Shown piece after piece: positions 11,623 to 42,619 of a stretch of DNA of 64,000 bases. The notes beneath the pieces are model-generated. The model saw only the letters and a list, made by a program, of their open reading frames with translations, was not told the DNA's origin and did not search any database. The stretch's first letter is position 1, and every line of letters begins with the position of its first letter. The DNA is from Candidatus Oxydemutatoraceae bacterium (GTDB lineage: Bacteria; Pseudomonadota; Gammaproteobacteria; Poriferisulfidales; Oxydemutatoraceae), in contig CBDCOZ010000001.1 of assembly GCA_965220085.1 (NCBI GenBank), positions 1-64,000 on the forward strand, given 5' to 3'. The position numbers and the translations under genes were made by a program.

Positions 11623-11794
11623 ATTAACCGCTGGCAGCCAAACCCCTCGCTTACCGTTTTGCCACATAGAGCGGTCATCTTATCAAGGGAATATTTTTGA
11701 CATTCATCCGCTTGGTTTAGAATTGCCCTCCGCCGTGCTCGCCGCGCTTGCGGGCTTCGCCCTCAGCTTGCCGCCGTCCCGCGAGGGGAAGTGT

Positions 11795-11885
11795 CATTTA
11801 TCCCCCGCAAGGCGGGGGATTATGTGGATCAGTCTGGGATAAATGCTGGTACGGCACTTATCCCCCGCAAGCAGGGGCATAATGC
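11795..11885 (-). CRISPR. CRISPR-like repeat-spacer-repeat unit (60-bp period) beside a REP-like element
   Basis: CATTTATCCCCCGCAAGGCGGGGGATTATG and CACTTATCCCCCGCAAGCAGGGGCATAATG separated by unique sequence; rc resembles the 32-kb repeat. Confidence 0.4.
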
Positions 11886-11967
11886 GGTGCTACAAGGACG
11901 ATTATACGGGGCTGGCGGCGCTTGCTGTATAATAGCCCGCCGTCATAAAATTAGGGTGGCACAAAGC

Positions 11968-13755
11968 ATGGTCGGAAGCACAAACAGTTTATCCCTCAGC
12001 AAGGAGCTCATCGCAAAGGGCAGAGAACGCGGGTTCTTGACCTATGCGGAGATTAACGATTACCTGCCGCAGGACATTTCCGATCCGGAACAGATCGAGA
12101 ACATCATCACCATCATCAGCGATGTCGGCATCAAGGTGTTGGAGCGCCCGCCCGAAGACGATTTGCTTCTGAACGATGAGACCCGCCCCGACGAGAGCGA
12201 CACCGACGAAGTCGCGGCGGCGCTGTCCAATGTCAAAGACCTTGAGCGGACGACGGATCCGGTGCGCATGTATATGCGCGAGATGGGGACGGTCTCGTTG
12301 CTCACTCGCGAGGGGGAGATTGTTATCGCCAAGCGCATAGAGGAGGGCGATGAGGAAGCGATACGCACGCTCGGCATGTTCCCCCCGGCAGTCCATGCGT
12401 TGGTTGAGTTGTATAAGCACCGCAGAGAAGAGAACTTAAAGATTGGCGATATCATCCTTGGGTTCTGGCAGGAGTATGAGTGGGACGGAAAGGCTGAGAG
12501 CAAGGAAGATTTGCAAGCCCTCAATGCCAAGGCCAAGCAAGAGGAGTTTGATGAGAGAGAAGTGGACGCATATTTTGCCCAACTCGGCAAGCTCTGCCGG
12601 AAGTCGCAATCGGATGCCGGTCGCAAGAACAAGGAGACCTATCTGCGGGTGCGCACGCGCATGTCCGAGATGCTCATGGAGGTCAAGCTGTCCGCGCTGT
12701 CTGTGGAGGTAATGGTCGACGAATTGAAGGCTTGCATGAAGACCATCCAGAACATTGAGAAGAATCTGATTACGCTTTTGTGCGTCGATGGGAAGATGCC
12801 CCGCGCATATTTCCTCGCCAAGTTTTCGGGCAAGGAAACCAACCGCAGGTGGTTTGCCACGCATACGCGCCGCGGCGTCAGATATGCGCGTGTGCTCAAG
12901 CCGCGCAAAGAATCTTTTATGCGGTGGCAAAACAAATTGATTATGCTGGAGAAGACGCACTGCCTCAGCATCACCGCCCTGAAAGAGTTGTACCGGGCTC
13001 TGGTCACCGGCGAGGCAAAGGCCGCGCGCGCCAAGAAAGACATGATAGAAGCGAACCTGCGCTTGGTCATTTCCATCGCCAAGAAATACACCAACCGCGG
13101 GTTGCAATTTCTGGATTTGATACAGGAAGGCAATGTCGGTTTGATGAAGGCGGTGGACAAGTTTGAGTATCGCCGCGGCTACAAGTTCTCGACCTACGCG
13201 ACGTGGTGGATTCGCCAGGCGATTACGCGCTCCATCGCCGATCAAGCGCGGACGATTCGCATTCCGGTGCACATGATTGAGACGATAAACAAGTTCAACC
13301 GGGTGACCCGCCGCATGGTGCAGGAGATAGGCCGCGAGCCCAAGCCCGAAGAGCTGGCCGAGCGGCTTGAGATGCCCGCCGACAAGGTGCGCAGGGTGCT
13401 CAAGGTCACCAAGGAGCCGATCTCGCTGGAGACGCCGGTCGGCGACGACGATGATTTGCAGATCAGCCATTTCATAAAAGACGAGAACACCATCGCGCCC
13501 GATGACGCGACCTCTTCCGATGCGCTCAAAGAAACGCTGCGCGAGTTGCTCGTCGGCCTGACGGCGCGCGAGGCGCAAGTGTTGCGGATGCGGTTTGGCA
13601 TAGACATGAACACCGACTATACTCTGGAAGAGGTCGGAAGGCAGTTTGATGTGACCCGCGAGAGGATACGTCAGATTGAAGCAAAAGCATTGCGCAAGTT
13701 GCGCCACCCGTCTCGTGTCGGCATGTTGCGCGGCTTTCTTGATGAGACAGAGTAA
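11968..13755 (+). CDS. rpoD: RNA polymerase sigma-70 factor
   Basis: Region 1.1 [81 protein letters not shown]. Confidence 0.98.
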
Positions 13756-13795
13756 GCCGCCTCATCGGGGCGGCGAACACACTCGCGGTGCGGCG

Positions 13796-13871
13796 GGGCC
13801 TGTAGCTCAGTCGGTAGAGCAGGGGACTCATAATCCTTTGGTCGCAGGTTCGAGTCCTGCCGGGCCCACCA
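13796..13871 (+). tRNA. ileX: tRNA with CAT anticodon, most likely tRNA-Ile2 (lysidine)
   Basis: 76 nt GGGCCTGTAGCTCAG...CTCATAA...GTTCGAGTC...GGGCCCACCA; G1-C72 pair and position after rpoD fit Ile2. Confidence 0.9.
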
Positions 13872-13898
13872 ATCTTTTCTAACGCGCTCCCCGACATC

Positions 13899-14753
13899 GT
13901 GGGCTTATTTCTCACCCTCGTTTCCCGTCTGCCGTTGCCGTTGCTGTATGCCGGCGCATGGTTGCTGTCCCTGCCGCTCTTTTATCTTTTGCGCTATCGC
14001 CGAAGGGAGGCGCGGGATAATCTGCGCCGCGCGTTTCCCGATTGGACGGAGGCGCAGGTCGCGCGCGCCTGTCGGCTGACATACTTTCGCCTCGCCGAGG
14101 TTCTGGCGGAGACGATAAAATTGCAAGCGCTGTCGGCGGAAGCGATCAAAAAGCGTGTGCGCTTAATCGGCGCCGATCGGCTCGGCTGGGACAAGCGGAC
14201 TCCGATCATCATTGTCGGCGCGCATCAGGGCAATTGGGAGTGGCTCTTCCAGCGGCTTGTGTTGCAGAGCCCGCATAATGCGTACGGCATCTATAAGCCG
14301 TTGCACAACCGCGTCGCCGACCGCTTCATCAAAAAAGTGCGCGCGCGTTTTGGCGTTGAGATGGTGGCGTATCGCGACTTCGGGCGGCACGCTGCCCGCC
14401 GCCGACAGGACAGTTGCATCATGATGGGCGACCAGTCGCCGTCTTCGCACAAGGGAATCGTTTGGGTGCGGTTCTTTGGTCGGCAGACCGCTTTTTATAG
14501 CGGTCTTGCGCGCTTGTCGGCGATGTTCCAATTGCCGGTGTTTTATGTCTCGCTCAAGCGGGTGCGGCGCGGCGTTTATCAGGCGGAGTTTGAATCGCTT
14601 GGCGTGGCGGGCAAAGGCGAGGAGGAAGCGTTCACGCAGTTGTATGCGAGCAAGATTGAGGCGGCGGTGTCGGCCTACCCAGAAGGGTGGTTGTGGACGC
14701 ACAGACGGTGGAAGCGTTCGCCGCCGCAGCCCGCAACGCGCGCCGGCTTGTAA
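13899..14753 (+). CDS. lipid A lauroyl/myristoyl acyltransferase (LpxL/HtrB family)
   Basis: N-terminal TM, HQGNWE, YKPLHN, DQ, FFG, WLWTHRRWK. Confidence 0.85.
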   Translation: MGLFLTLVSRLPLPLLYAGAWLLSLPLFYLLRYRRREARDNLRRAFPDWTEAQVARACRLTYFRLAEVLAETIKLQALSAEAIKKRVRLIGADRLGWDKRTPIIIVGAHQGNWEWLFQRLVLQSPHNAYGIYKPLHNRVADRFIKKVRARFGVEMVAYRDFGRHAARRRQDSCIMMGDQSPSSHKGIVWVRFFGRQTAFYSGLARLSAMFQLPVFYVSLKRVRRGVYQAEFESLGVAGKGEEEAFTQLYASKIEAAVSAYPEGWLWTHRRWKRSPPQPATRAGL

Positions 14754-15957
14754 GCGAGTGCTGCAGTTGGGTACGGTAGCGGAAGCGCTCGCCGCTGTAG
14801 CCCGCAACGGGCGCGCACTTTTATTTGATTCGTTTCAAAACACCGTCAAGGATGTCGAGGTCGTTGTAGTGGATGATGAGTTTGCCCTTGCCGGAGCGCT
14901 GGTGTTTGATCGTCACGGCGGTGCCGACTTTTTCCGACAGTTCCTGCTGAAGCTGTTTGATTTCGGCGGGCATCTTTTGTCCGGCCTGCTTGCCGCGACC
15001 CTTGCCATCCGCGCACTTTTTTGATGAAGCGGTCGGCGGCGCGGAGTTTATCAGGCGGAGTTTGAATCGCTTGGCGTGGCGGGCAAAAGCGAGGAGGAAG
15101 CATTCGCGCAGTTGTATGCGAGCAAGATTGAGGCGGCGGTGTCGGCCTGCCCCGAGGGGTGGTTGTGGACGCACAGACGGTGGAAGCGCTCGCCGCCGCA
15201 GCCCGCAACAGGCGCCGGCTTGTAAGCGAGTGCTGCAGTTGGGTACGGTAGCGGAAGCGCTCGCCGCTGTAGCCCGCAACGAGCGCCGGCTTGTAAGCGA
15301 GTGCTGCAGTTGGGTACGGTAGCGGAAGCGCTCGCCGCTGTAGCCCGCAACGCGCGCGCACTTTTATTTGATTCGTTTCAAAACACCGTCAAGGATGTCG
15401 AGGTCGTTGTAGTGGATGATGAGTTTGCCCTTGCCGGAGCGTTGGTGTTGAATCGTCACGGCGGTGCCGACTTTTTCCGACAGTTCTTGTTGCAGTTGTT
15501 TGATCTCGGCGGGCATCTTTTGTCCGGCCTGCTTGCCGCGACCCTTGCCATCCGCGCACTTTTTTAATCAAGCGGGTGCGGCGCGGAGTTTATCAGGCGG
15601 AGTTTGAATCGCTTGGCGTGGCGGGCAAAAGCGAGGAGGAAGCATTCGCGCAGTTGTATGCGAGCAAGATTGAGGCGGCGGTGTCGGCCTGCCCCGAGGG
15701 GTGGTTGTGGACGCACAGACGGTGGAAGCGTTCGCCGCCGTAGCCCGCAACAGGCGCGCACTTTTATTTGATTCGTTTCAAAACACCGTCGAGGATGTCG
15801 AGGTCGTTGTAGTGGATGATGAGTTTGCCCTTGCCGGAGCGTTGGTGTTGAATCGTCACGGCGGTGCCGACTTTTTCCGACAGTTCCTGCTGAAGCTGTT
15901 TGATTTCGGCGGGCATCTTTTGTCCGGCCTGCTTGCCGCGACCCTTGCCATCCGCGC
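14555..15957. repeat. complex tandem amplification of the convergent lpxL-like/parB 3' ends
   Basis: parB 3' ~194 bp at 14821, 15364, 15764; acyltransferase 3' ~190 bp at ~14560, 15040, 15568; linker repeated three times. Confidence 0.9.
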
Positions 15958-16648
15958 CTAGCAGTCGGGCGACATAGTCTTCGGTCTCGCGCACGGTCAT
16001 CTCCCGTTGTATCACAAGCAGTGCGACGCTCGGCTGAGTCTCTGTATCAAGGCCGAGCAACGCGCGCGCGTGCCCCATCTCAAGTTTGCCGTCTGCCAGC
16101 AGGTCGCGCACTTGGGGCGCGAGTTTGAGCAGGCGCAGAATATTGGTAATCGCCGCGCGCGAGCGACCGAGTGTCTGCGCCAGCGCATCGTGGGTGAGGT
16201 CAAAGCGCGCGATCAGTTGTTGCATTGCCGTCGCCTCTTCAAGCGGGTTCAAGTCTTCGCGCTGGATGTTTTCTATCAAAGCGCACGCCGCCGCCGCCGC
16301 TTCATCGGTGTCCTTGACGATGGCCGGAACTTCTGTCAGCCCGGCAAGCTGCGCCGCCCGCCAGCGTCTCTCGCCGGCGATGAGTTCAAACCCGTCCGCG
16401 TCTTTTGGTCTGACGACGATCGGTTGTATCAGGCCCTGACTTTTGATGGAATGCGCGAGTTCGGCCAATGCGTCCTCGCCGATCCGCTGGCGCGGTTGGT
16501 GTTTGCTCGGGCGGATATCGCCGAGCGCGATCCGCTCCAGATGCAACTTGCCGTCGGTTCCGGTTTCATCCAGCGCGACCGGCTGGGCGGATGACAGCAG
16601 GGCATCCACGCCTAACGCGCCGAGTCCTCTTCTTTTTTTCTTTGCCAT
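15764..16648 (-). CDS. parB: chromosome partitioning protein ParB
   Basis: RGLGALGVDALL, QPRQ, LIAGERRWRAA, ENIQREDLNPLEEA, HTH. Confidence 0.96.
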   Translation of the reverse strand: MAKKKRRGLGALGVDALLSSAQPVALDETGTDGKLHLERIALGDIRPSKHQPRQRIGEDALAELAHSIKSQGLIQPIVVRPKDADGFELIAGERRWRAAQLAGLTEVPAIVKDTDEAAAAACALIENIQREDLNPLEEATAMQQLIARFDLTHDALAQTLGRSRAAITNILRLLKLAPQVRDLLADGKLEMGHARALLGLDTETQPSVALLVIQREMTVRETEDYVARLLGADGKGRGKQAGQKMPAEIKQLQQELSEKVGTAVTIQHQRSGKGKLIIHYNDLDILDGVLKRIK

Positions 16649-16661
16649 AATGTTTATCCTG

Positions 16662-17435
16662 TTATCTGTCGGGTTGCGCGTTGCGGGCGATGATTTCGCC
16701 GGCCAAAGTGAGATAGGCCCGCGACCCGCGCGAGTCTTTGTCATACTGAAGCGCCGGCAGTCCGTGGCTGGGCGCTTCGGCGAGCGTTACATTGCGCGGG
16801 ATGATCGCATCAAACAGTTCTTGCGGGAAGTAATTGTGCAACTGCTTGGATACATCTTGCGCCAAGTTATTGCGCGCATCAAACATAGTCCGCAACACGC
16901 CGGCGACCCGCAACCGCGGATTGGCGGTCTCTTGAATCCGCTTGATCGTTTGCAGCAGCGACGACAGCCCCTCAAGCGCGTAGTACTCGCACTGAATCGG
17001 AATCAGCGCGCCCTCGGCGGCGACCAGCGCGTTGATTGTCAGCGTGTTCAGCGTCGGCGGGCAGTCTATCAATATGTAGTCATAGCGCTCGGCGATGCCA
17101 GTCAGCGCTTGGCGCAACTTCAACTCGCGCCCGTCGTGTTTCATCAGCGCCACTTCGGTAATCGTCAGTTCGGCATCGGAACCGATGACATCGTAGTCGC
17201 CCGCCGGCGAGCGCATGATGCATTGCGCAAGCGGTGTTCCCGTCAGCACATCGGCGACGGAGTACTCCATCTCATTCTTGTTCAAGCCGCTGCCCGTTGT
17301 CGCATTGCCTTGCGGGTCAAAGTCAATCAGCAGCACTTTGCGCTTGGCGGCGGCAAGGGCTGCGGACAGGTTGACGCTGGTTGTCGTTTTGCCGACTCCG
17401 CCTTTTTGATTTGCGATTGCGTAGACTATGCTCAT
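16662..17435 (-). CDS. parA: chromosome partitioning ATPase ParA/Soj
   Basis: NQKGGVGKTTT, DFDPQGNAT, IDCPP, QCEYYALEG, IPRNVTLAEAPSHG. Confidence 0.96.
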   Translation of the reverse strand: MSIVYAIANQKGGVGKTTTSVNLSAALAAAKRKVLLIDFDPQGNATTGSGLNKNEMEYSVADVLTGTPLAQCIMRSPAGDYDVIGSDAELTITEVALMKHDGRELKLRQALTGIAERYDYILIDCPPTLNTLTINALVAAEGALIPIQCEYYALEGLSSLLQTIKRIQETANPRLRVAGVLRTMFDARNNLAQDVSKQLHNYFPQELFDAIIPRNVTLAEAPSHGLPALQYDKDSRGSRAYLTLAGEIIARNAQPDR

Positions 17436-18076
17436 TTTTGAAGTGTGATGCCGACCAGTCTATGGGTGCGGTCTGCGCTCAGAAAATCCAGATTTTCAAC
17501 CCGCCAGTTTATACCGTTTTGCCGGTTTTGCGGCAGCGCGGGAGTTTTCTGCGCCGCCCGTCGGCTTTTATACGCCAGCCACAGCGTGGCATCATGGGCG
17601 AGATGGCGCGAAGCGGCGACGAATGTCTCCGGCGTTCCCAGCGCCCGCCCGATGATCGTGTCAAACGGTTTTGCCGGGCGCAACGCCTCCGCCCGCGAGC
17701 GGATGACCGACACATTTTTAAGGTCAAGGCGCAACCGGCAGTGTTCCATGAAGCGCGCTTTCTTGCCGTTGCTGTCGACCAGCGTGAAGTGTTTGTCGCG
17801 GCAGTATATCGCAAGCGGCGCGCCCGGTATGCCGGCGCCGCTGCCGACATCCAGAATGTTTTGTCCGCGCAGGTGTTTCGCCGCCGCCAGACTGTCGAGT
17901 ATCAGGTTTTGCACGATCGCCTCGTCGGCGCGGATTGCCGTCAGGTTGTAGCGCCGGTTCCACTTAACGAGCAGCGCGAGCCATTCGCGCGCCAGTGTGT
18001 GCCGGTCATCGCCAGCCGCCAGCCCGAGTGCGGCGACCCCCCTGCGCAACTGTTCCGGCAGTTCCTGTCCCTCCAT
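17432..18076 (-). CDS. rsmG: 16S rRNA m7G527 methyltransferase
   Basis: KWNRRYNLTAIR, LDVGSGAGIPG, DSNGKKARF; synteny mnmG-rsmG-parAB. Confidence 0.93.
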   Translation of the reverse strand: MEGQELPEQLRRGVAALGLAAGDDRHTLAREWLALLVKWNRRYNLTAIRADEAIVQNLILDSLAAAKHLRGQNILDVGSGAGIPGAPLAIYCRDKHFTLVDSNGKKARFMEHCRLRLDLKNVSVIRSRAEALRPAKPFDTIIGRALGTPETFVAASRHLAHDATLWLAYKSRRAAQKTPALPQNRQNGINWRVENLDFLSADRTHRLVGITLQK

Positions 18077-18085
18077 TGTGCGGTA

Positions 18086-18571
18086 TCAGCGCGCGGCCTC
18101 TTGGCTGATGTCGCGCAAGACCGCGCGCATCCTTTCAAACAGCGCCCGATGCTTGCCGTCTTTGGTGTGGCGCTTTTCCAGAAAGGACGGCGCGGTGTAA
18201 CTGATCCACACCAAACCGGACTTGTCTTCCCAGATCAGCAACTTCAGCGGCAGGTCAAGGCCAATCAGGCGGTTCTTTCGCAGCAACACGGTGCCGACCT
18301 TGGGGTTGCCAAAGACAAGCAACTTGGTCGGCGGCAAAGCCATCGCAACCCCCTTGGCGTTGTCGGCGTGGTCGATGACGCCAAACACACGGAACTCGTG
18401 GTGTTCCAGAATGCGCTTGGCGCGTTCGGCGGTGGTGTCCACACTGTGGCGACTTTTGATGTGCATCGTGCCTTGCGAGGCGGGCTTCTTGATGGCATCT
18501 GCCAGGCCATCGCTCGCCAACGCTGCGAGCAAGAACAGCCATGCGAGTTTAGCCGGCGCGTACTTTTGCAT
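18086..18571 (-). CDS. DUF302 domain exported protein
   Basis: Signal peptide; VFGVIDHA, LLVFGNPKVGT, GLDLPLKLLIWED. Confidence 0.85.
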   Translation of the reverse strand: MQKYAPAKLAWLFLLAALASDGLADAIKKPASQGTMHIKSRHSVDTTAERAKRILEHHEFRVFGVIDHADNAKGVAMALPPTKLLVFGNPKVGTVLLRKNRLIGLDLPLKLLIWEDKSGLVWISYTAPSFLEKRHTKDGKHRALFERMRAVLRDISQEAAR

Positions 18572-19225
18572 GGTGCGATTTAATGTGCGGTTGCAACAGG
18601 CTCAGAGCGCGCGGCGTGATGCCCTGTATGCGCCCGGCCTGACCGAGCGTCGCCGGTTTGAACCGCAGCAGTTTGCCGCGCAACTCTTCGGACAAGCCGC
18701 TGATGTTGGCGCAGTCAAAATCCTGCGAGGCGGGCTTCTTGATGGCATCTGCCAGGCCATCGCTCGCCAACGCTGCGAGCAAGAACAGCCATGCGAGTTT
18801 AGCCGGCGCGTACTTTTGCATGGTGCGATTTAATGTGCGGTTGCAACAGGCTCAGAGCGCGCGGCGTGATGCCCTGTATGCGCCCGGCCTGACCGAGCGT
18901 CGCCGGTTTGAACCGCAGCAGTTTGCCGCGCAACTCTTCGGACAAGCCGCTGATGTTGGCGCAGTCAAAATCCTGCGAGGCGGGCTTCTTGATGGCGTCC
19001 GCCATGCCGTTGCTCGCGAGCGCCGCGCGCGCGAACAGCCATGCGAGTTTAGCCGGCGCGTACTTTTGCATGGTGCGATTTAATGTGCAGTTGCAACAGG
19101 CTCAGAGCGCACGGTGTGATGCCCTGTATGCGCCCGGCCTGACCGAGCGTCGCCGGTTTGAACCGCAGCAGTTTGCCGCGCAACTCTTCGGACAAGCCGC
19201 TGATGTTGGCGTAGTCAAAGTCCTG
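18473..19225 (-). repeat. 250-bp tandem repeat of the mnmG 3' end / DUF302 5' end junction
   Basis: Period exactly 250 bp; yields two 90-aa chimeric ORFs (18549-18821, 18799-19071). Confidence 0.92.
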
Positions 19226-20920
19226 CGGGATGGCCGTTTGCTCGGCGTCCGCCATGCGCCGAATTTCCTGTTCCTGACGCGGCAGGTAGCCGGCGTAAGC
19301 GGCGGTCGCCTCCAGTTGCTCTATCGCTTGCTCATCGCTTAGCGGGTCGGGCAGTTGCGCAAGGGCTGCGATGTCGGCGTAGCGAATGCCCGGCCGGCGC
19401 AACAGCTCGGTCGCGGCGCACGTGTTTTTCAGATTGATGTCGCGAGCGCTTGCATCTTGCGGCGTGATCTTCAGTGCGGCGAGCCGCGCCTGCTCCTTTT
19501 CAATCCGCTCCATCTTGTTATTGAACAATCGCCAGCGGCGGTCGTCAACGAGGCCGAGCTCGCGCCCTTTCGGCGTCAAGCGGGCGTCGGCATTGTCGTG
19601 GCGCAACAGCATCCGGTACTCGGCGCGGCTGGTGAACATTCGGTACGGCTCGGTCGTCCCGCGCGTGACTAAGTCATCTATCAGCACACCGATGTAGGCC
19701 TCATCGCGACGCGGGTACCACGGCGCCAGCCCGCGCACCGTTCGTCCGGCGTTAAGACCGGCAATCAAGCCCTGTGCTGCGGCCTCCTCATAGCCTGTCG
19801 TGCCGTTGATCTGACCGGCGAAGAACAGGCCTTTGACTGCCCGCGTTTCCAGCCACGGGCGCAGGCCGCGCGGCTCGAAGTAATCGTATTCAATCGCATA
19901 GCCCGGGCGCGTGATGTGGGCGTTCTCAAACCCCTTGACGGATTGCACCATCGCAAGCTGTGTTGCGAACGGCAGACTGGTTGAGATGCCGTTCGGGTAG
20001 ACCTCATCGGTGTTCAAACCTTCCGGCTCTATGAATATCTGGTGCGAGCTCTTATCGGCGAACTGCGTGACCTTGTCTTCTATCGACGGGCAGTAGCGCG
20101 GGCCGACCGATTCTATCGCGCCGTTGAACATGGGCGACTGATGCAGCGCCTCGCGGATGATCGTGTGCGTCTTTTCATTGGTGCGCGCGATGTGGCACAG
20201 CCGTTGCTCGGGGTGTTGGTCGCGGTTGCCGATGAACGAGAAGACCGGGCGCGGGGAGTCGCCGGGCTGTGTCGCAAAGCGCGCGTAATCAAGCGTCGCC
20301 CCGTCGATGCGCGGCGGCGTGCCCGTTTTGAGCCGCCCGACATTCGGCATCAACTCGCGCAACCGCGCGGCCAGCGCAATAGTCGGCGCATCGCCCGCGC
20401 GCCCGCCGCCGTGATTGTTCGCGCCGATGTGAATGCGCCCGCCGAGAAAGGTGCCGGTCGTCAGCACGACGGTTTGCGCTTTGAAGGTCAGCCCCATGCC
20501 GGTTTTGACGCCGCATACGCGGTCGTTCTCAATGATGAGATCGTCTGCCGCCTGCTGGAACAGCATCAGGTTCGCTTGCCGCTCGACCAGCCGGCGCACC
20601 GCATTGCGGTAGAGCGCGCGGTCGGTCTGCGCGCGGGTTGCCCGCACCGCAGGCCCCTTGCGCGAGTTGAGCACGCGAAAGTGAATGCCCGCGCAATCCG
20701 CCGCCTGCGCCATGATGCCGCCCAGCGCGTCGATCTCGCGCACGAGATGGCTCTTGCCGATGCCGCCGATGGCCGGGTTGCAACTCATCTGCCCGACAGT
20801 CTCTATGCTGTGCGTCAGCAACAACGTGTGCGCGCCGGTGCGCGCCGCCGCCAGCGCCGCCTCGGTACCGGCGTGCCCGCCGCCGACGACGATCACCTCA
20901 AATTCTTGCTGATTAGCCAT
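19049..20920 (-). CDS. mnmG: tRNA uridine 5-carboxymethylaminomethyl modification enzyme
   Basis: [58 protein letters not shown]. Confidence 0.98.
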
Positions 20921-20954
20921 GCCGCACATTCTACCACTCCCCCGCGCGCTCACT

Positions 20955-21782: not shown

Positions 21783-21980
21783 ATGAATGCTGTTGAGATA
21801 GAGCAGGCGGTCACGGAGCTGGCCGGGCGGCCGTTTGATGGCGGGGAGTTTCCCTTTGCGTTTCTGGAGGCGTTTGGCAACAAGGCCACCACCATCAAGC
21901 GGCTGCGCAAGGGCGACTCCAACAGGTCCGATGTCGGCGGCCTGTTGCAGACCAGCAACATACACATCAAGGTCTGCGCC
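21783..21980 (+). pseudogene. N-terminal fragment of MmeI/YeeA-like type IIL R-M protein
   Basis: MNAVEIEQAVTELA..FDGGEFPFAFLEAFGNKATTIKRL; truncated after ~65 aa. Confidence 0.7.
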
Positions 21981-22385
21981 GCTATCTGTTCACGGCCGTA
22001 GATTTGTATAGCCGGTTTGGTTTTGCTATCGGCGTCCCTCGTGGTAACAGTATCGTTGCCGAGTTCTTTATCAGGCTGGTGATGCAAGTCTTCCCCGCCA
22101 AGATAGACCCAGCGCTCACCGACAACGGCTCTGAGTTCTGCGGTGCGTTTGGGCGCTACCCGCAAGAATAGGGTATCCGCCACTGCCACACCTACCCCCG
22201 ATGCCCGAAGATGAACGCATTCAATGAACGCTTTAACCGCGCGATTCGGGAAGAGCTTGTGGAACTTGAAGAGGGTTTGTTGCGACCGACATGCGGATAT
22301 TTCATAATCGTCGGATAAAGTATCTGTTATGGTTTGATACCTAACGACTACATTACGGACTGAGGCTTCAAGCACCCATGACACA
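21978..22385 (+). mobile_element. integrase-core (rve) transposase fragment, IS481-like, frameshifted
   Basis: FTAVDLYSRF...LTDNGSEF; next frame HTYPRCPKMNAFNERFNRAIREE. Confidence 0.75.
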
Positions 22386-22531
22386 CACAATATTTGCCCC
22401 ATGTGTCCAATATGTCATGGCATCATACACTGCACTCGGAGTTGTTGCTTATTCTTTGGGCAAGCAACGGCCTTTCTTTCGCACTTGTATGTATAATCAA
22501 CTCTCCGACTAACTTTGGGCATATTTGTTCT

Positions 22532-23867: not shown

Positions 23868-25292
23868 ATGAAAAAATTACTTTGTATCATCCTGCTATTG
23901 GGGGCGGCATCAGTGTGGGCAAACCCCATGACCGTGCCCCAAGATGTGTTAACCATAGCCCAAGCCGCTGAGGAACCTTTGAAGTTGCGCTTGCGCGTAT
24001 TCCTCGAAGGCCCCCTGCGAGGCGGTTCGTCCTCGCCCGGGGGTATCCGGTCAGGATCGCAAAGCAATCCAATCACACTAACGCTGGGAAGAGACGTATC
24101 GGGGACTATCAATCCGCCCAGCACCGTTTACTACCGTTTTACGGTGTCTACGCGCACACAGGTTACGATTACAACCGCCGGCACAACTGACAGAAGCGTC
24201 TTCTTGGAAAACAGTGAGGGCGGAACATTGGATGTTAACTTTTCTTCTGACGGAGAGACCATCGAGATAACTTCGATTCTTACAGCAGGCACTTATTACA
24301 TAATAGTTGGCGGAGTGGGCCTTGTTGATGAACCACCAGGAAGTTACACTCTGATGACAACTGGTGTGCCCATACCAGATATTCCCCTAACATTGGGAGA
24401 AAGCGTATTAGGGACTATCAATCTGGACGCTCCCAATTACTACCGCTTTACGCTGTCTACGCGCACACAGGTGACGATCGCAACCACCGGCACAACTGAC
24501 ACACTCGGAATATTGGAAAACAGTGAGAACATAGTGTTGGCATTTAATTATGATATTAGTAACGAGAATCCAAATTTCAGAATTACTCGGACTCTTGCAA
24601 CAGGCACTTATTACATTATCGTTTCGCTAGACTTTGGGGCAGACTCAGGAAGCTACACTCTGATGGCAACCACAGCGACCGCATCAGATATTCCCCTGAC
24701 ATTGGGAGAAAGCGTATCAGGGACTATCAATCCGGACGTTCCCAATTACTACCGGTTTACGGTGTCTACGCGCACACTGGTTACAATTGCAAGCACCGGA
24801 ACAGCCGACACACAAGGAATATTAGAAGACAGTGCGGGCAGACTGGTGAGATCAGGTTTTGTATCCCATCCTTTCGGATTTGCTGTGACTCTTGAACCAG
24901 ACACTTATTACTTTAGCATTGAGGGAGCTTTTTTTGACACAGGAAGTTACACCCTGATGACAACTGGTACGCCCATACCAGATATTCCCCTAACATTGGG
25001 AGAAGGCGTATTAGGGACTATCAATCCGGACGCTCCCAATTACTACCGCTTTACGGTGTCTACGCGCACACAGGTTACTATTGAAACCACCGGAACAACC
25101 GACACATTCGGAATATTGGACAACAGTGAGAACATAGCGTTGGCATTTAATTCTGATATTAGTAACGAGAATCCAAATTTCAGAATTACTCGGACTCTTG
25201 AACCGGGCACTTATTACATACTCGTTAGGGGCGAGTTTATTGACACGAGAGGAAGCTACACTCTGATTACAACCGCAAGGCCTGCGCCTTGA
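23868..25292 (+). CDS. secreted protein with four tandem PPC-like (pre-peptidase C-terminal) domains
   Basis: Signal peptide; four ~105-aa repeats YYRFTVSTRTQVTI.TTGTTDT...L..GTYYI...GSYTL. Confidence 0.8.
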   Translation: MKKLLCIILLLGAASVWANPMTVPQDVLTIAQAAEEPLKLRLRVFLEGPLRGGSSSPGGIRSGSQSNPITLTLGRDVSGTINPPSTVYYRFTVSTRTQVTITTAGTTDRSVFLENSEGGTLDVNFSSDGETIEITSILTAGTYYIIVGGVGLVDEPPGSYTLMTTGVPIPDIPLTLGESVLGTINLDAPNYYRFTLSTRTQVTIATTGTTDTLGILENSENIVLAFNYDISNENPNFRITRTLATGTYYIIVSLDFGADSGSYTLMATTATASDIPLTLGESVSGTINPDVPNYYRFTVSTRTLVTIASTGTADTQGILEDSAGRLVRSGFVSHPFGFAVTLEPDTYYFSIEGAFFDTGSYTLMTTGTPIPDIPLTLGEGVLGTINPDAPNYYRFTVSTRTQVTIETTGTTDTFGILDNSENIALAFNSDISNENPNFRITRTLEPGTYYILVRGEFIDTRGSYTLITTARPAP

Positions 25293-28743: not shown

Positions 28744-29865
28744 TTAGCCGGGCCGTGTGTCGTTTATGATGCGCATAAGTCGGGTGAAGCACAGTATGGC
28801 AGCCTGCCCGCCGCGACCCGGTCGTATCGTATCCAGAATTCCGGCAGCTGTTATGCTACGCAATAAGTTGCTGACAGTAGTGCGATTGACCCCGTAATCC
28901 CGGTGCATCTGTCTGGCTAGGTCGGGGACCGAAAAAATGGGTTTGCTGAATATGGCATCCAGAATATAAACAATGTATTGTGAATGGGTTATCTTGCGGA
29001 CGCGCTCTTGCATATCCTTGCGCAGGCTCTGAATGGCGGAGACTCTTCTGGCATTGGTTTTGGCATGTTCGGCAATCGCATTGAGAAAAAACGCCACCCA
29101 ATCGCTCCATGCGCCCTCATCCGAGATGGCCAAAAGATGACGGTAATATGCTTGGCGATGTTTCTCAAGATACTCGGAAAGGTAGAACATGGGTTGTGAC
29201 AAGGCTTTCTTGTAGTACAAAAACAGCGGTATCAGCATCCGCCCGACACGCCCATTGCCATCATTAAAAGGGTGCAGAATCTCAAACTGGGCGTGCATCA
29301 CAGCGGTTTGCAACAGCGGATCAAGGTCATCCGATGCCATGTATTGCTCCCATGCTCGCAAATGCTCCTCCAAAACAAGCGGTTCTGGTGGCACAAAGCG
29401 CGCTTCTGCGATGGCGCTACCGGGGCGGCCTATGTAGTTTTGGGTCGTGCGAAACGCCCCCGGCGTCTTGTCCTGACCGCGCACCTCCTCCATCAACAGC
29501 CCATGCAATTGACGCACTAAGTGTAGCGACAACGGACGCGATTTTTGCAGATACGCATGGCCTTCCCTCAAAGCGGTTCGGTAGTTGATGATTTCTCTGA
29601 AGCCATAATACTTATCTTCCTTGTCGGGCGACCCGGCCTCATACTTAAAAACCTCGTCCAGAGTTGCCTGAGTTCCCTCTATTCTGGATGACAGGGTCGC
29701 CTCTTGGTCGGTGAGGGGTGATAACATCACACCGGGGTTGGGTATGCTCTGCAACATCCCTGTATAGTGCGCCAGAGTAGCATTGGCACGTCCCACCAAA
29801 GGTAACAACCTCCTATGGTCCAGGCGATTATTCAGGGGTAAGTTGTCAGGCTGGCAAGGCTTCAT
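28744..29865 (-). CDS. Fic family protein with intact motifs
   Basis: Inhibitory SSRIEG and catalytic HPFNDGNGRVGR. Confidence 0.92.
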   Translation of the reverse strand: MKPCQPDNLPLNNRLDHRRLLPLVGRANATLAHYTGMLQSIPNPGVMLSPLTDQEATLSSRIEGTQATLDEVFKYEAGSPDKEDKYYGFREIINYRTALREGHAYLQKSRPLSLHLVRQLHGLLMEEVRGQDKTPGAFRTTQNYIGRPGSAIAEARFVPPEPLVLEEHLRAWEQYMASDDLDPLLQTAVMHAQFEILHPFNDGNGRVGRMLIPLFLYYKKALSQPMFYLSEYLEKHRQAYYRHLLAISDEGAWSDWVAFFLNAIAEHAKTNARRVSAIQSLRKDMQERVRKITHSQYIVYILDAIFSKPIFSVPDLARQMHRDYGVNRTTVSNLLRSITAAGILDTIRPGRGGQAAILCFTRLMRIINDTRPG

Positions 29866-30088
29866 CGGGGCAAGTCCATTCTGTGAAAATGCCCCATTAT
29901 ATCAGACTTGTGGCAAAAAATGAATTTTTCGATGCAAGTTGGCAAACTTGTAGCGCAGCGTTTACAAGTTTGAATAATTTCCGATAAAACAGTGTCTTAG
30001 AGACGGGTTGCGATTTGGTGAGCGATTCGGCTAAGGAAGGGTGCGCACCATGCTAACCATCGCTCCCCCCTCGCTGAGTGCAAGTAAT

Positions 30089-30227
30089 ACTCTCCCCTTG
30101 TGGGAGAGTCGGCGTAGTTGTGCTACGCCGGAGAGGGGGAAAGGAAGGTTCGTGCAAGAAGCTCCCCCTCACCGCATCGTCCTTCGCCTTCGGCTCGTCC
30201 TCTGCGACTCTCCCGCGAGGGGAGAGT
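30089..30227. mobile_element. 139-bp MITE-like element
   Basis: Terminal IRs ACTCTCCCCTTGTGGGAGAGTCG ... CGACTCTCCCGCGAGGGGAGAGT; near-identical to 32220-32358. Confidence 0.75.
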
Positions 30228-30390
30228 GTTTCCCCCTCACCGGTGCGCTTGCGGGGATGGTGCGAGAGGAGCGTGTTGGAGTAGCTGCCGCTAGGCTACC
30301 TGCTAGCCAGCCCCCTTAGCTTACCGACTCTCCCGCGAGGGGAGAGTCATGCGATGTGCGGAAGGGGGCGGCAACCGCCGCAGGCGGCGC

Positions 30391-31506
30391 TTAGCCGGGC
30401 TGGCTGTCGTTTAGGATGCGCATAAGTCGGGTGAGGCACAGTATCGTCGCACACCCGCCGCGACCCTGTCGTGTTGTATCCAGAACTCCGGCAGCCACTA
30501 GGTTGCGCACCAGGTTGTTGACAGTGGTGCGATTGATTCCGTGACTCCGGTGCATCTGTCCGGCTAGGTCGGGGATTGAAAAAATGGGTTTGGCGAATAC
30601 GGTGTCCATAAGAGGAACAATGTATCGCGAAGGGCTTATCTTGCGGACGCGCTCGTGTATATCCTTGCGCAGACTCTGAATGGCGGCGACTCTTCTCATA
30701 CCGGCTTCGGCATGTTCGGCAATCGCATTGAGAAAAAACGCCACCCAATCGCTCCATGCGCCCTCATTCGAGATGGCCAAAAGATGACGGTAATATGCTT
30801 GGCGATGTTTCTCAAGATACTCGGAAGGGTAGAATGTGGGTTGTGGCGAGGCTCCCTTGTAGTACAAAAATAGCGGTATCAGCATCCGCCCGACCCGCCC
30901 GTTGCCATCATAAAAAGGGCGCAACATCTCAAACTGGGCGTGCATCACAGCGGTCTGCAACAGCGGGTCAAGGTCATCCGATGCCATGTATTGCTCCCAT
31001 GCTTGCAAGCGCTCCTCCAACGCAAGCGGTTCCGGCGGCACAAAGCGCGCCTCTGCGATGGCGCCGCCGGGGCGGCCCATGTGGGTTTGGGCGGTGCGAA
31101 ACTCCCCCGGCGTCTCGTCCTGACCGCGCACCCCCTCCATCAACAGCTCATGCAATTGACGCACTAAGCGCAACGACAACGGACGCGATTTTTGCAGATG
31201 CGCATGGCCTTCTCTCAAAGCGGTTCGGTAGTTGATGATGATTCTGAAGCCATAATATTTGTCTCCCTTGTCGGGCAATCCGGCATCATGCCCAAGAACC
31301 TCGTCCAGAGTCGCCTGCGTTCCGCCTATTGCGGATGACAGCGTCGCCTCTTGGACGGTGAGGGGTGATAACATCGCATCGGGTATGTCCTGTAGCATCC
31401 TTGTGTAGCGCGTCAGGGTAACGTTGGCCCGCCCCACTAGAGGCAGCAACCTCCTATGGTCCAGGCGATCATTCAAGGGTAAGTTGTCGGGTTGGTAAGG
31501 TTTCAT
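30391..31506 (-). CDS. Fic paralog with degenerate active site
   Basis: Close paralog of 28744-29865; SSAIGG and RPFYDGNGRVGR. Confidence 0.88.
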   Translation of the reverse strand: MKPYQPDNLPLNDRLDHRRLLPLVGRANVTLTRYTRMLQDIPDAMLSPLTVQEATLSSAIGGTQATLDEVLGHDAGLPDKGDKYYGFRIIINYRTALREGHAHLQKSRPLSLRLVRQLHELLMEGVRGQDETPGEFRTAQTHMGRPGGAIAEARFVPPEPLALEERLQAWEQYMASDDLDPLLQTAVMHAQFEMLRPFYDGNGRVGRMLIPLFLYYKGASPQPTFYPSEYLEKHRQAYYRHLLAISNEGAWSDWVAFFLNAIAEHAEAGMRRVAAIQSLRKDIHERVRKISPSRYIVPLMDTVFAKPIFSIPDLAGQMHRSHGINRTTVNNLVRNLVAAGVLDTTRQGRGGCATILCLTRLMRILNDSQPG

Positions 31507-31740
31507 CGGGGCAAGTCCATTTTGTGAAAATATCCCATTGTATCAGACTTGTGGCAGAAAATGAAATTTTTGCTACAAGTCGGCAAACTTGTAGCACAGC
31601 GCATACAAGTTTGAATAATTGCCGATAAAACAGTGTCTTAGAGACGGGTTGCGACTCGGCTAAGGGGGACTGCGCATAATGCTCACCATCATTCTCTCCT
31701 TGTGGGGGAATTGCTCGCACTCAGTGCAGAGGCCGAAAGG

Positions 31741-31803
31741 CAGCAACCTCCTATGGTTCAGGCGATTATTCAGGGGCAAGTTGTCAGGTTGGCAAGGCTT
31801 CAT
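31741..31803 (-). pseudogene. third fic copy, 5' 21 codons only
   Basis: MKPCQPDNLPLNNRLNHRRLL with the same upstream region as the other two copies. Confidence 0.8.
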
Positions 31804-31942
31804 CGGGGCAAGTCCATTCTGTGAGAATGCCCCGTCATGTCATACTTGTAGCGCAGGGTTTACAAGTTTGAATAATTGCCGATAAAACAGTGGCTTAGAG
31901 ACAGGTTGCGAGTCGGCTAAGGAAGGGTGCACACCATGCTAA

Positions 31943-32216
31943 CCATCGCTCCCCTCGCGTGGGGACAAATGATTACCCGAAGTCGGATGTGGTGGCATTA
32001 TACCATCACTCCCCCCTCGCATGGGACAAATTTGTTGCGATGCGCGCGACGCCTCGGCGTCTCGCATCACTCCCCCCTCGCATGGGACAAATACACGATT
32101 GAAGTGCGTTTAATCCCCGTTTAAATCATTCCCCCCTCTGTGGGACAAATATCACTCTCCTCTTGTGGGTGCTCTGTCGACGCACTGCCGCTCGATTTCC
32201 CTCGCGTGGGACAAAT
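31943..32216. CRISPR. orphan CRISPR-like mini-array: 4 repeats, 3 unique spacers, plus a degenerate fifth unit
   Basis: Core repeat ATCACTCCCCCCTCGCATGGGACAAAT (exact at 32005 and 32066, variants at 31945 and 32125, partial at 32198); 32-34-nt unique intervals; no cas genes in the window. Confidence 0.7.
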
Positions 32217-32219
32217 ATC

Positions 32220-32358
32220 ACTCTCCCCTTGTGGGAGAGTCGGCGTAGCTGTGCTACGCCGGAGAGGGGGAAAGGAAGGTTCGTGCAAGAAGCTCCCCCT
32301 CACCGCATCGTCCTTCGCCTTCGGCTCGTCCTCTGCGACTCTCCCACGAGGGGAGAGT
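32220..32358. mobile_element. 139-bp MITE-like element
   Basis: Copy of 30089-30227. Confidence 0.75.
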
Positions 32359-32411
32359 GTTTCCCCCTCACCAGTGCGCTTGCGAGGATGGTGCGAGGGG
32401 AGCGGAGCGGG

Positions 32412-38750: not shown

Positions 38751-38778
38751 TAAAAATCGCGTTTCGTAGTCATGCCAT

Positions 38779-39449: not shown

Positions 39450-39461
39450 GGCGGCGCTCTG

Positions 39462-39995: not shown

Positions 39996-40007
39996 GCCGC
40001 ACATTCT

Positions 40008-40240
40008 ATCACTCCCCCCTCGCGGGGGAGTCGGCGAGCGCAGCAAGCCGGAGAGGGGGACAGCCTCATACTTGCACTAACCAACACTCCCCCCTCGCGG
40101 GGGAGTCGGCGAGCGTAGCAAGCCGGAGAGGGGGAAAAGGAAAGTTCGTGCAAGAAGCTTCCCCTCACCGCATCGTCCATCGCCTTCGGCTCGGTCTCTG
40201 CACTTGGTGCAAGCCGGAAACTTTCCCGCAAGGGGAGAGT
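40008..40240. repeat. tandem REP/MITE-like copies
   Basis: Two ACTCCCCCCTCGCGGGGGAGTCGGCGAGCG.AGCAAGCCGGAGAGGGGG units; the second extends to a full MITE variant. Confidence 0.75.
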
Positions 40241-40254
40241 ATGCACGGTGCTAA

Positions 40255-42000
40255 TTACGCTTCCGTTTTGGTCGGGATACGAATAGATTTGACAAGGGCT
40301 TGAGTCTTCTGCGGCGGCGCTTGTGTCAATGACGCCACCAGCACACCGACGCCCAAAGCGAGCCACATAAAGACAAAGCCGATTCCTTCGGGAGAAACGC
40401 CGAAAAGCCATTGCGCCTTTGTGCCGCCGAGAAATTTGAAATAGAGGATGTAGGAGAAAGTTGAAACCAGCCCGACGAGCATCGCTGCGATAGCGCCCTG
40501 CTGATTCATGCGTGTCCAGAAGATGCCGAGGAAGAGGACTGGGAAAAGCGAGGCGGCGGCAAGTCCAAAGGCAAAGGCCACCACTTCGGCCACAAAGCCG
40601 AGTTCGGATGCATAGAGGCCGAGCAGACCGGCGGCAATCACGGCAGCAGCCGCTGAGAAGCGGGCGAGCATAAGTTCCGTGCGGTCATGCATATTCGGCA
40701 TGAGCGTGCGGCGGAATAAATCATGGCTTATCGCCGAGGAGATAACCATCAACAAGCCCGCCGCCGTTGATAAGGCCGCGGCCAAGCCGCCGGCGACGAC
40801 CAGTGCAATCACCCAATGCGGCAATTGTGCGATTTCGGGATTGGCGAGCACAAAAATATCGCGATTGGGATTGACCTCATTGGCAAGTCCGTCCGGTGCG
40901 TGCGGCCCGCGATGCTGCATGTGGCCATCGCCGTTCTTGTCGTCGTATCGCACGAGCCCGGTCTTCTCCCATGACTTATACCATTGCGGCACCGGCTTGT
41001 CGCCTGCGGCGAGGATCTCTTCGGCGCGCGCCTCATAATCTTCCTCATCAGTGATATAGACCGCCTCATTGACGGAGTCGATAAAATTGATGCGCGCAAA
41101 AGCCCCGACGGCCGGCGCTGTCGTATAAAGCAGCGCAATAAAGAGCAACGCCCATCCTGCCGAAACGCGCGCGGCGGGCGCTGATTTCACCGTGAAGAAG
41201 CGGATGATTACATGCGGCAGGCCGGCTGTGCCGAACATCAAGGCGGCGGTAATGCAGAAAACATCCATCGTGGACTTGTGGGCGGAAGTGTATTCCAGAA
41301 AGCCCAGATCGCGCAGCACCTGATTGAGCTTTTCAAGGACGGATATTTCCGTTCCTTTGACATCGGAGATGAAGCCGAGTTGGGGAATCGGATTGCCGGT
41401 GATGATGAGCGAGATAAAAATCGCCGGCACGGTATAGGCGAAAATCAGCACGCAATATTGCGCGACCTGCGTGTAGGTAATGCCGTTCATGCCGCCGAGC
41501 ACGGTATAGGCAAAGACGATGACCATGCCGATGAGAATGCCGATGTCAAAGGGAATGCCGAGGAAGCCGGAGAAAGCCACGCCCACGCCCTTCATCTGCC
41601 CGGCGATGTAGGTAAAGGAGACGAACAGCGCACAGAGCACCGCGATTACGCGCGCCGCGTTGGAATAATATCTGTCGCCGACAAAATCCGGCACGGTGAA
41701 TTTTCCAAAATTGCGCAGGAAGGGGGCGAGCAGCAGGGCGAGCAATACATAGCCGCCCGTCCAGCCCATCAGATAGATTGAGCCGCCGTAGCCGAGAAAA
41801 GCGATGAGCCCCGCCATGGACAAGAAGGACGCCGCCGACATCCAGTCCGCCGCGGTGGCCATGCCGTTCATCACCGGATGGACATCGTGGCCCGCCACAT
41901 AGAAATCCTCTGTGGAGCGCGCGCGCGCCCAGATTGCAATCGCGACATACAGCGTGAAAGTGAGGCCGACAAAAAGAAAAGTCCAAAGCTGCTGATCCAT
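40255..42000 (-). CDS. sodium:solute symporter (ActP-like)
   Basis: NGMATAADWMSAASFLS, GTAGLPHVIIRFFTV, GGLAAALSTAAGLL; many TM helices. Confidence 0.93.
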   Translation of the reverse strand: MDQQLWTFLFVGLTFTLYVAIAIWARARSTEDFYVAGHDVHPVMNGMATAADWMSAASFLSMAGLIAFLGYGGSIYLMGWTGGYVLLALLLAPFLRNFGKFTVPDFVGDRYYSNAARVIAVLCALFVSFTYIAGQMKGVGVAFSGFLGIPFDIGILIGMVIVFAYTVLGGMNGITYTQVAQYCVLIFAYTVPAIFISLIITGNPIPQLGFISDVKGTEISVLEKLNQVLRDLGFLEYTSAHKSTMDVFCITAALMFGTAGLPHVIIRFFTVKSAPAARVSAGWALLFIALLYTTAPAVGAFARINFIDSVNEAVYITDEEDYEARAEEILAAGDKPVPQWYKSWEKTGLVRYDDKNGDGHMQHRGPHAPDGLANEVNPNRDIFVLANPEIAQLPHWVIALVVAGGLAAALSTAAGLLMVISSAISHDLFRRTLMPNMHDRTELMLARFSAAAAVIAAGLLGLYASELGFVAEVVAFAFGLAAASLFPVLFLGIFWTRMNQQGAIAAMLVGLVSTFSYILYFKFLGGTKAQWLFGVSPEGIGFVFMWLALGVGVLVASLTQAPPQKTQALVKSIRIPTKTEA

Positions 42001-42002
42001 CG

Positions 42003-42293
42003 CTAAGACTGTGCCCCCTGTTCTTCAAGGCCGAACTTTTTTTCAATGCGCCGCATCGCATGGCAATAATAAAATATCAGCGCGACAAAAATATAGATGG
42101 AACCGTTTTGCGCAAACCAGAAGCCGAGCGGTGCGCCGCCCAAACTGAAATGATCCAAAAAGTCGCGAAACAATATGCCGGCCCCGTAAGAAGCAAGAAA
42201 CCACAGCACGAGCAACCCTCCCGTAAGACGCAACACCGCGCGCCAATAGGCTTTGGTGTCAATGACGCGCCGAGATGGTGATTTTTCCGACAT
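42003..42293 (-). CDS. DUF4212 small symporter subunit
   Basis: AYWR...WFLASYG...GAPLGFWFAQNGSIYIF; directly upstream of the SSS gene. Confidence 0.88.
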   Translation of the reverse strand: MSEKSPSRRVIDTKAYWRAVLRLTGGLLVLWFLASYGAGILFRDFLDHFSLGGAPLGFWFAQNGSIYIFVALIFYYCHAMRRIEKKFGLEEQGAQS

Positions 42294-42430
42294 CCTTCTT
42301 TCTGATAAAAACTTTCCCTGTCGAATGGCAGGGAGGCTTATATGATAAATCATCGTGTTGCATTTGGTGGCTGTGGAGACGCATCCGAGACACGTTGCGA
42401 TTCGGCTAAGGAGGAGTGCGCATAATGCGA

Positions 42431-42520
42431 CCATCGTTCCCCCTTCGCACGGGACAAATAAGGTAACTTTGCTCAAAGGACGCTCAAATTACCATCGTTC
42501 CCCCTCGCGGGGGAGAGTCG
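42431..42520. CRISPR. CRISPR-like repeat-spacer-repeat unit merging into a REP element
   Basis: CCATCGTTCCCCCTTCGCACGGGACAAAT + 32-nt spacer + CCATCGTTCCCCCTCGCGGGGGAGAGT; period 61; same upstream flank as the 32-kb array. Confidence 0.55.
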
Positions 42521-42619
42521 GCGTAGCTGTGCTACGCCGGGGAGAGGGAAGTTTGTTGGAGCTTGCAAGGGGAGTGGAGCGATGCAGTGGGGGACAAGCC
42601 CCTGCCAGATGAACTCAAC

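Follow-up and report, generated by a model that had tools for sequence, protein, structure and literature searches.

Three short loci in the first 64,000 nucleotides of contig 1 of a Candidatus Oxydemutatoraceae bacterium genome (GCA_965220085.1, contig CBDCOZ010000001.1; the window) combine conserved repeats with unique spacers, and each has a palindromic unit of a repetitive extragenic palindromic (REP) or MITE (miniature inverted-repeat transposable element) family within 0-2 nt. We consider it very likely that these loci are orphan, decaying relics of type I-E clustered regularly interspaced short palindromic repeat (CRISPR) arrays in a REP-rich genome. A preliminary description had presented them as a candidate new Cas-less CRISPR-like system seeded from MITE ends, a reading that our results do not support. 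The genome comprises 2.49 Mb in 3 contigs and is 99% complete, and the window forms the start of contig 1.

Repeat-spacer structure of the three loci

Locus 2 (31942-32216) contains five repeats of 27-29 nt that end in GGGACAAAT at 31962, 32023, 32084, 32142 and 32208, with periods of 61, 61, 58 and 66 nt. All five were delimited by sequence inspection, profile and alignment, and all but R3 were also folded; they are assigned, as are the spacers, to the minus strand. R2 (32004-32031) and R3 (32065-32092) are the same over 28 nt, yet the spacers beside them have nothing in common. The terminal repeat R1 (31942-31970) differs from both at a few positions, and R4 (32123-32150) and R5 (32190-32216) are degenerate. 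Intervals one to three measure 30-33 nt, are mutually unrelated and, by uniqueness comparison, unique in the genome (spacer 1, 31971-32003, 31-33 nt by boundary choice; spacer 2, 32032-32064, 33 nt; spacer 3, 32093-32122, 30-32 nt). The fourth interval (32151-32189, 39 nt, assigned to neither strand) begins with a copy of the MITE terminus, its first 19 nt matching 32217-32235 at 18 of 19 positions, and is probably a decayed REP fragment rather than a spacer. The 29 + 32 nt repeat-spacer architecture reported earlier is therefore real, with unique spacers and adjoining REP or MITE units, except that this last interval probably does not belong to it.

Read and contig checks drew on the one sequencing study that contains the stretch, probably the source of the assembly; no RNA run containing it was listed. 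There, a 417-nt contig from an independent assembler covers 31863-32279 with 0 differences, and no spacer variants were seen in the reads. A second sample of that study covers the paralogous flank and has a gap at 31840-32213, which is uninformative.

Locus 3 comprises one full repeat (42431-42459), a 30-nt spacer (42460-42489; unique by comparison) and a second unit (42490-42518), all on the minus strand, with the repeat units delimited by sequence, profile and alignment. The second unit is a chimera, in which the left half is repeat (CCATCGTTCCCCCT) and the right half is a REP hairpin that enters REP module A (42511-42550, plus strand; 95% identical to MITE positions 17-56). The last repeat, at 42494, had been equated with the element end, which holds for its right half but not for its left. 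A match of the locus 3 spacer to its own genome (contig 3, 749352-749377; 23 of 26 nt, E 0.13) is not significant.

Locus 1 has two repeats 59-60 nt apart, of a variant that reads CATAATCCCCCGCCTTGCGGGGGATAAAT on the minus strand, with a 32-nt spacer (11825-11856) that is unique in the genome. Repeat a (11796-11824), the spacer and the decayed repeat b (11857-11885; 4-bp stem, placed by folding and alignment) would have their crRNA (CRISPR RNA) sense on the plus strand, and the rpoD start (11968) follows 83 nt downstream of repeat b. The locus is abutted by a REP-like module (11725-11795, neither strand assigned) made of a hairpin and a second stem-loop, the core of which (11740-11780) has 4 copies in the genome. 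Both the repeat and the adjoining REP are variants other than those at loci 2 and 3, so that the repeat consensus ascribed to all three loci applies to loci 2 and 3 and not to locus 1. By alignment only, the locus 1 repeat has the same architecture as type I-E repeats.

Extent of the repeat in the genome

A core pattern of the repeat with at most 3 mismatches gave 13 matches against 4.76 expected, a count reached in 0 of 100 shuffles. Ten matches were returned by a genome scan for the hairpin plus AYAAAT motif, 8 of them within the three loci and 2 isolated singles. In a search with a profile built from the eight window repeats, those eight ranked first (E 2e-5 to 8e-3, by construction), followed by REP hairpins only (E >= 0.04). 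Neither the motif scan nor the profile search found a further array of this repeat in the genome. As all three loci also fall within 31 kb, the earlier picture of arrays dispersed around the genome does not hold.

The genome has an extreme abundance of short-period repeats. The loci might be false CRISPR arrays, that is, clusters of REP hairpins resembling bacterial interspersed mosaic elements (BIMEs), the regular spacing of which arose by tandem amplification before the copies diverged. Other hairpin arrays in this genome have periods of 51-66 nt, and one of these has 12 units with a period of 60-61 nt. In its hairpin core, the mini-array repeat is similar to the REP hairpin, and no CRISPR-DR family of Rfam matched the repeats, permissive thresholds included. 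However, the intervals of the other arrays are copies of one another, whereas here R2 and R3 are the same and their spacers unrelated, and conserved repeats together with unrelated spacers were found only at the three window loci, as were arrays of the hairpin plus AYAAAT. Both repeat ends (ATTTGTCCC and GGGACAAAT) moreover match a repeat family that adjoins type I-E cas genes, as set out below, and we regard the false-CRISPR explanation as very improbable.

Two of the tandem REP arrays lie on contig 3 (1962422-1963105, 12 copies; 496285-496500, 4 copies), each built from a 60-61-nt unit of a REP hairpin and an AT-rich segment. Their intervals are identical, and their CRISPR-like period is a coincidence. 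Weak pattern matches also fell at 24383-25006 of the window, in a periodic repeat of ~300 nt inside a gene whose product has three pre-peptidase C-terminal (PPC) domains; this repeat is unrelated to the loci.

The repeat family adjoins type I-E cas operons

We scanned metagenomes for the two repeat ends of loci 2 and 3 at CRISPR spacing, with a query that fixed 13 of 28 repeat positions and imposed neither the ATCAC flank nor the length of 28 nt nor the period of 61 nt. Forty loci were returned and 18 inspected. Eleven of these, on 10 contigs, are arrays of 15-74 repeats with a period of 61 nt, in which the repeat is GGATCACCCCCGCTTGCGCGGGACAAAT or its CATAC-loop variant; the remaining 7 are unrelated tandem or coding repeats. 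On one contig (L119 + L090), cse1, cse2, cas7e, cas5e, cas6e, cas1e and a cas2e::DnaQ fusion are followed directly by the array, and all of these genes except cse1, which fell below, score above curated cut-offs. A second contig (L100), which carries the loop variant, has cas1e and cas2e::DnaQ directly before its array. Because the family adjoins type I-E cas operons, the geometry of the window loci, which had been likened to type I-E on spacing, is indeed that of true type I-E CRISPR.

On the crRNA strand, repeats of this family read ATTTGTCCC...GGGGGTGATCC. The repeat end of loci 2 and 3 that does not resemble REP (ATTTGTCCC) agrees with the family at 9 of 9 positions, and the TGAT handle matches as well, which argues that the repeats were inherited and not made from MITE ends. 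On sequence, we thus assign the repeat of loci 2 and 3 to a genuine type I-E family. A search for the exact repeat across 185,579 species, each represented by one genome, returned 62 loci, each a single match and in unrelated phyla; as ~140 matches would be expected by chance, that search is uninformative.

The metagenome arrays also suggest an orientation. In both contigs that link an array to cas genes, the array comes after cas2, the two being on one strand, and degenerate repeats lie at its far end. Two contigs from different samples (L119:222-300 and L120:1780-1870) have the trailer flank and first spacer in common and differ in their later spacers, which shows that the type I-E system with this repeat family actively acquires spacers in its AT-rich host. 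The degenerate far end and the shared first spacer at that end place the leader on the cas2 side and give ATTTGTCCC...GGGGGTGATCC as the crRNA strand, and type I-E repeats of three related genomes, read along their cas genes, give the same orientation. With moderate confidence, the crRNA strand would therefore be the minus strand at loci 2 and 3 and the plus strand at locus 1, with the REP or MITE units on the leader side; with similar confidence, the flank of locus 2 that was earlier termed a leader (31850-31941, plus strand) would be a trailer flank.

Cas genes of the genome and its relatives

No cas gene lies in the window, as had been noted. Elsewhere, on other contigs, the genome carries two complete class 2 CRISPR-Cas loci (contig 2, 218560-222888 and 223009-227686; contig 3, 1907098-1911083 and 1911245-1915861). 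In one, Cas9 (Cas9d as best model, at 825 bits) is encoded with Cas1 and Cas2 of type II, and the array of 36-nt repeats spans 4.3 kb; in the other, Cas12a occurs with Cas4, Cas1 and Cas2, and its 36-nt repeats form an array of 4.0 kb. The 36-nt repeats of both are unlike the mini-array repeat, and a 36-nt ruler is unfit for repeats of 28-29 nt, so that the resident Cas1-Cas2 pairs serve other repeats.

Family searches of the genome found no Cas6e, Cas7e, Cas6f or Cas5, and a Cas3 core below the cut-off only. Nor did tblastn reveal a type I-E cas remnant or pseudogene with 24 open reading frames (ORFs) from type I-E loci as queries, namely 7 Cas proteins of a metagenome contig and ORFs from the operon regions of two relatives. 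The two cas1 genes of the genome are of type II and type V, and no REP-associated tyrosine transposase (RAYT, Y1; PF01797) was matched in it, so the cas6e or RAYT partner envisaged in the preliminary description was not found. The lack of type I-E cas genes in the genome makes the arrays orphans and is no argument against a type I-E origin. Type I-E systems, recognized by Cas7e, occur in 3 of 52 other genomes of the order, two of which are among the 18 others of the family, and each of the three Cas7e-bearing relatives has a type I-E array of the same repeat architecture. Their presence in 3 of 52 genomes of the order makes presence and loss within the group plausible.

REP and MITE hairpins at the repeat ends

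The MITE beside locus 2 (32217-32362, neither strand assigned) is a small, non-coding, multi-copy element of 146 nt with 23-nt inverted ends, which form hairpin-shaped terminal inverted repeats at 32219-32241 and 32337-32359. Its two modules are each also found alone, and in tandem clusters, giving 109 matching pieces in the genome. The hairpin ACTCYCCCCTYGYGGGRGAGT (at most 1 mismatch) has 91 copies in this genome against 0 for a reversed-pattern control, and it is this neighbouring REP element, not the mini-array repeat, that is a high-copy intergenic palindrome. Within the family, the hairpin occurs in 3 copies in one genome of another genus and in none of the other 17 genomes. Those three copies have the same two-hairpin build, and that genus has no type I-E system. 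Comparison of the locus 2 DNA with 40 related genomes gave no match beyond the REP hairpin.

The REP hairpin begins 2 nt from the first base of the repeat, as read on the presumed crRNA strand, at three junctions (R5 with the MITE, R4 with the REP fragment, and locus 1); the fourth repeat/REP junction, at locus 3, is the chimera. By a rough estimate, chance REP adjacency has a probability of ~3e-3 per site in non-coding DNA and ~1e-5 for two independent sites, so that an association in fixed register is unlikely to have arisen by chance. The REP hairpin and the type I-E repeat family are also alike, each with a stem of a C-run and a G-run, a TYGY loop and a TGAT-like flank. We read these junctions as REP insertion or recombination at repeat-like hairpins, and the locus 3 chimera is direct evidence for recombination.

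A stronger proposal, that type I-E repeat ends are a specific target to which this lineage's REP/MITE family homes or with which it recombines, seems to us very unlikely. Since the three junctions would fall between leader and repeat, such an insertion would shut the array off and keep new spacers out. A bolder form of it would have the REP family descend from the type I-E repeat itself, with which it has ~70% of the hairpin and the TGAT flank in common. In the literature searched, we found no report of REP elements that target CRISPR repeat ends, which is not to claim that none exists.

The likeness of the two hairpins also admits the converse, in which a former type I-E Cas1-Cas2 seeded new arrays off-target at repeat-like REP hairpins, with 28 nt of local sequence duplicated each time. 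In E. coli type I-E, off-target integration has reportedly been seen to give rise to new arrays. Such seeding would account for the REP-like character of the flank-side repeat half, including the bases upstream of R1 (GCTAACCAT; GCTAACC), which match the 5' flank of several REP copies, as well as for the 16 identical nt in common between R2 and the REP at 40008 and for the single register of REP at three junctions. However, with 91 REP hairpins in all, neither the motif scan nor the profile search found a repeat-spacer unit at any other of them, no type I-E Cas1-Cas2 is present in the genome, and the REP family also occurs in a genus without type I-E. A random site would not be expected to match the type I-E family at 9 of 9 positions (ATTTGTCCC) and in the TGAT handle in its non-REP half, and loci 2 and 3 and two other flank copies go back to one ancestral locus by duplication (below). 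Off-target seeding is in our judgement decidedly unlikely. The same findings bear on the two mechanisms originally put forward: the lack of repeat-spacer units at other REP hairpins, of further arrays and of any protospacer found speaks both against MITE ends that seed arrays across the genome and against a MITE that acts as a mobilized CRISPR repeat dispersing guides.

No autonomous partner of the MITE was found, and no target-site duplication was established. The ends of a multi-copy insertion sequence (IS) of 1081 bp are unrelated to it, and where two REP hairpins lie 0.6-3.5 kb apart, the DNA between them holds ordinary genes and no transposase. The 1081-bp IS has at least 8 near-full genome copies with 5-bp target duplications, and pieces of it lie at two contig ends. 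One transposase remnant in the window (21967-22429) is an 84%-identical piece of this IS, and another (10179-10613) is of IS1595 type. On contig 3 (95948-105920), three tandem ORFs of ~900 aa have REP hairpins between them, spaced 3.2-3.4 kb apart.

Duplication of the locus 2 flank

The loci had been described as separate. We found that a flank of ~120 nt to the left of locus 2 exists in 4 copies, at 29952, 31593, 31850 and 42387, and that three of these sit upstream of Fic sequences, namely two Fic-domain genes and one N-terminal fragment, forming a tandem segmental duplication. In the first unit, Fic copy 1 (28744-29865, minus strand; Pfam Fic_N and Fic; 79% identical to copy 2) is accompanied by a flank copy (29952-30074, plus strand) that ends in a half repeat (30056-30074), the array being deleted. 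The half repeat is followed by 12-14 other bases and then by a MITE copy (30089-30231, plus strand) 98.6% identical to that at 32217, and the matching joint, from 31954 to 32220, is seen in contigs from the source run. Fic copy 2 (30391-31506, minus strand) comes with a second flank copy (31593-31711, plus strand), identified by sequence comparison and profile, which ends in a repeat- or REP-like hairpin (31685-31711); the Fic N-terminal fragment (~31735-31815) follows, and then the flank of locus 2 itself.

Similarity between the two duplicated units runs ~45 nt beyond the MITE. As one duplication accounts for both MITE copies (30089 and 32217), their two junctions with the array represent a single event that was copied. 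The fourth flank copy (42387-42430, plus strand; 78-80% identical to the locus 2 copy) stands at locus 3, which agrees with locus 2 at 78-80% identity over ~73 nt of flank plus repeat and also has REP module A. On this comparison, locus 3 probably represents an older copy of the ancestral unit that it shares with locus 2, and the idea of independent loci is not borne out. Two further ORFs beside the duplicated unit, of 507 and 506 aa, were considered as paralogues and rejected on comparison.

Repeat decay and possible function

A Cas6e hairpin has a stem of about 6 bp and a 4-nt loop, with a tail of 7-8 nt after it, and two reference repeats from working arrays show a 6-bp stem and a 4-nt loop when folded. 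We folded 7 of the 8 window repeats, omitting R3 as a copy of R2, and six of them have stems of 4-5 bp with loops of 5-7 nt. Repeat a of locus 1 alone has a strong stem (9 bp with a 3-nt loop, -17.1 kcal/mol, z -3.8). According to these predicted folds, the Cas6e hairpin would mostly have been weakened by drift.

Weakened stems bear on the possibility that the arrays still work, Cas-less or served in trans, as guides or regulators or by blocking the re-entry of cognate cas genes. Orphan arrays with such a role, those of E. coli type I-F, are described in a review (PMC8616872), and the very stable hairpin of locus 1 has been kept 140 nt upstream of rpoD. In the window, most repeat stems are weakened, the genome has no cognate Cas6e or Cascade gene, and the Cas9 and Cas12a repeats are unrelated. 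We also considered anti-cas spacers and rejected the idea, as no spacer matches the type I-E cas loci that we fetched. That the arrays are at work today is thus extremely improbable, and as relics they would have no present role in immunity.

Discussion

Several observations count against a decayed type I-E origin. No spacer has a significant protospacer in phages, plasmids, its own genome or the fetched type I-E loci: the locus 2 spacers gave no phage match and 3 plasmid matches at E 0.8-3, those of loci 1 and 3 gave no phage match, matches to the own genome and the fetched loci were at chance level, and the 24-nt core of spacer 3, the one core checked in a large viral collection, had 0 exact matches in viral contigs. 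The flank-side half of the repeat of loci 2 and 3 is equally close to the REP hairpin and to the type I-E family. Loci 1 and 3 have only two repeats each, and the locus 1 repeat pair was absent from 400 other genomes of the class, the metagenome search having covered the repeat of loci 2 and 3. Arrays of one system usually share leaders, and the flank common to loci 2 and 3 would be on the trailer side. On the strand proposed here, the most degenerate repeats (R4 and R5) would stand at the leader side, which is unusual and which we attribute to REP activity there. Finally, with a genome 99% complete in 3 contigs, a cas-bearing replicon could lie outside the assembly.

If the loci are orphan type I-E relics, their history may have run as follows. 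An ancestor would have had a type I-E system with Cas2 fused to a DnaQ exonuclease, the Cas1-Cas2 integrase of which placed spacers of 32-33 nt between repeats of 28-29 nt, giving the 61-nt period. The cas operon would later have been lost, with no remnant detectable now, leaving arrays that shrank to one to three real spacers each while their repeats drifted and the Cas6e hairpin was mostly weakened. The abundant REP and MITE hairpins would have inserted at the repeat ends or recombined with them, producing one clear chimera and probably displacing the leaders, and a local tandem duplication of the Fic gene would have yielded several copies of the terminal repeat and its flank. The window includes parB, parA, rsmG (gidB) and mnmG (gidA) at 15764-20953, rpoD at 11968-13755 and a tRNA at 13796-13868. 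The parA/parB, rsmG and mnmG gene set is usually found near the replication origin, which places the relics in the core chromosome and not in an obvious island.

Among known systems, the loci are closest in form to the arrays with Cas2-DnaQ described above (L090/L119 and L100), with which they have in common a repeat of 28-29 nt, a 61-nt period in 2 of 4 locus 2 intervals, a central hairpin of a C-run and a G-run and, in loci 2 and 3, the first 9 nt of the crRNA strand (ATTTGTCCC) and the TGAT handle. Unlike those arrays, they have no type I-E cas genes nearby or elsewhere in the genome, 1-3 real spacers per locus, weak stems and REP or MITE units on the leader side. They resemble the orphan arrays of E. 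coli type I-F and Enterococcus faecalis CRISPR2 in being short and of recognizable subtype without its cas genes (PMC8616872, PMC4580645). Orphan arrays have been seen as degeneration products, and the E. coli type I-F ones carry anti-cas spacers and still work once Cas proteins are supplied (PMC8616872), whereas the window spacers have no cas match and the repeats are degraded.

REP, MITE and CRISPR are treated as kinds of small repeats in one review (PMC3184786), and the element beside our loci is high-copy, intergenic, modular and often tandem, like bacterial REP, BIME and MITE families (PMC3184786, PMC3116915). The mini-array repeats, unlike REP or BIME, are not high-copy and enclose unique spacers, and the genome has no RAYT/Y1 transposase. 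Off-target neo-CRISPR loci of E. coli are likewise said to be small arrays of type I-E geometry away from cas genes; there any off-target sequence is reportedly duplicated, whereas both repeat ends in the window match a genuine type I-E family.

The main value of these results is a correction, from a candidate Cas-less CRISPR-like system to orphan, decaying type I-E arrays. They also link type I-E systems in which Cas2 is fused to DnaQ with a repeat family that our searches found only on metagenome contigs. On this account, the lineage would once have had a third CRISPR type beside Cas9 and Cas12a, and the REP hairpins set tightly on the repeat ends hint that CRISPR arrays can be worn down or put out of action by mobile palindromic repeats.

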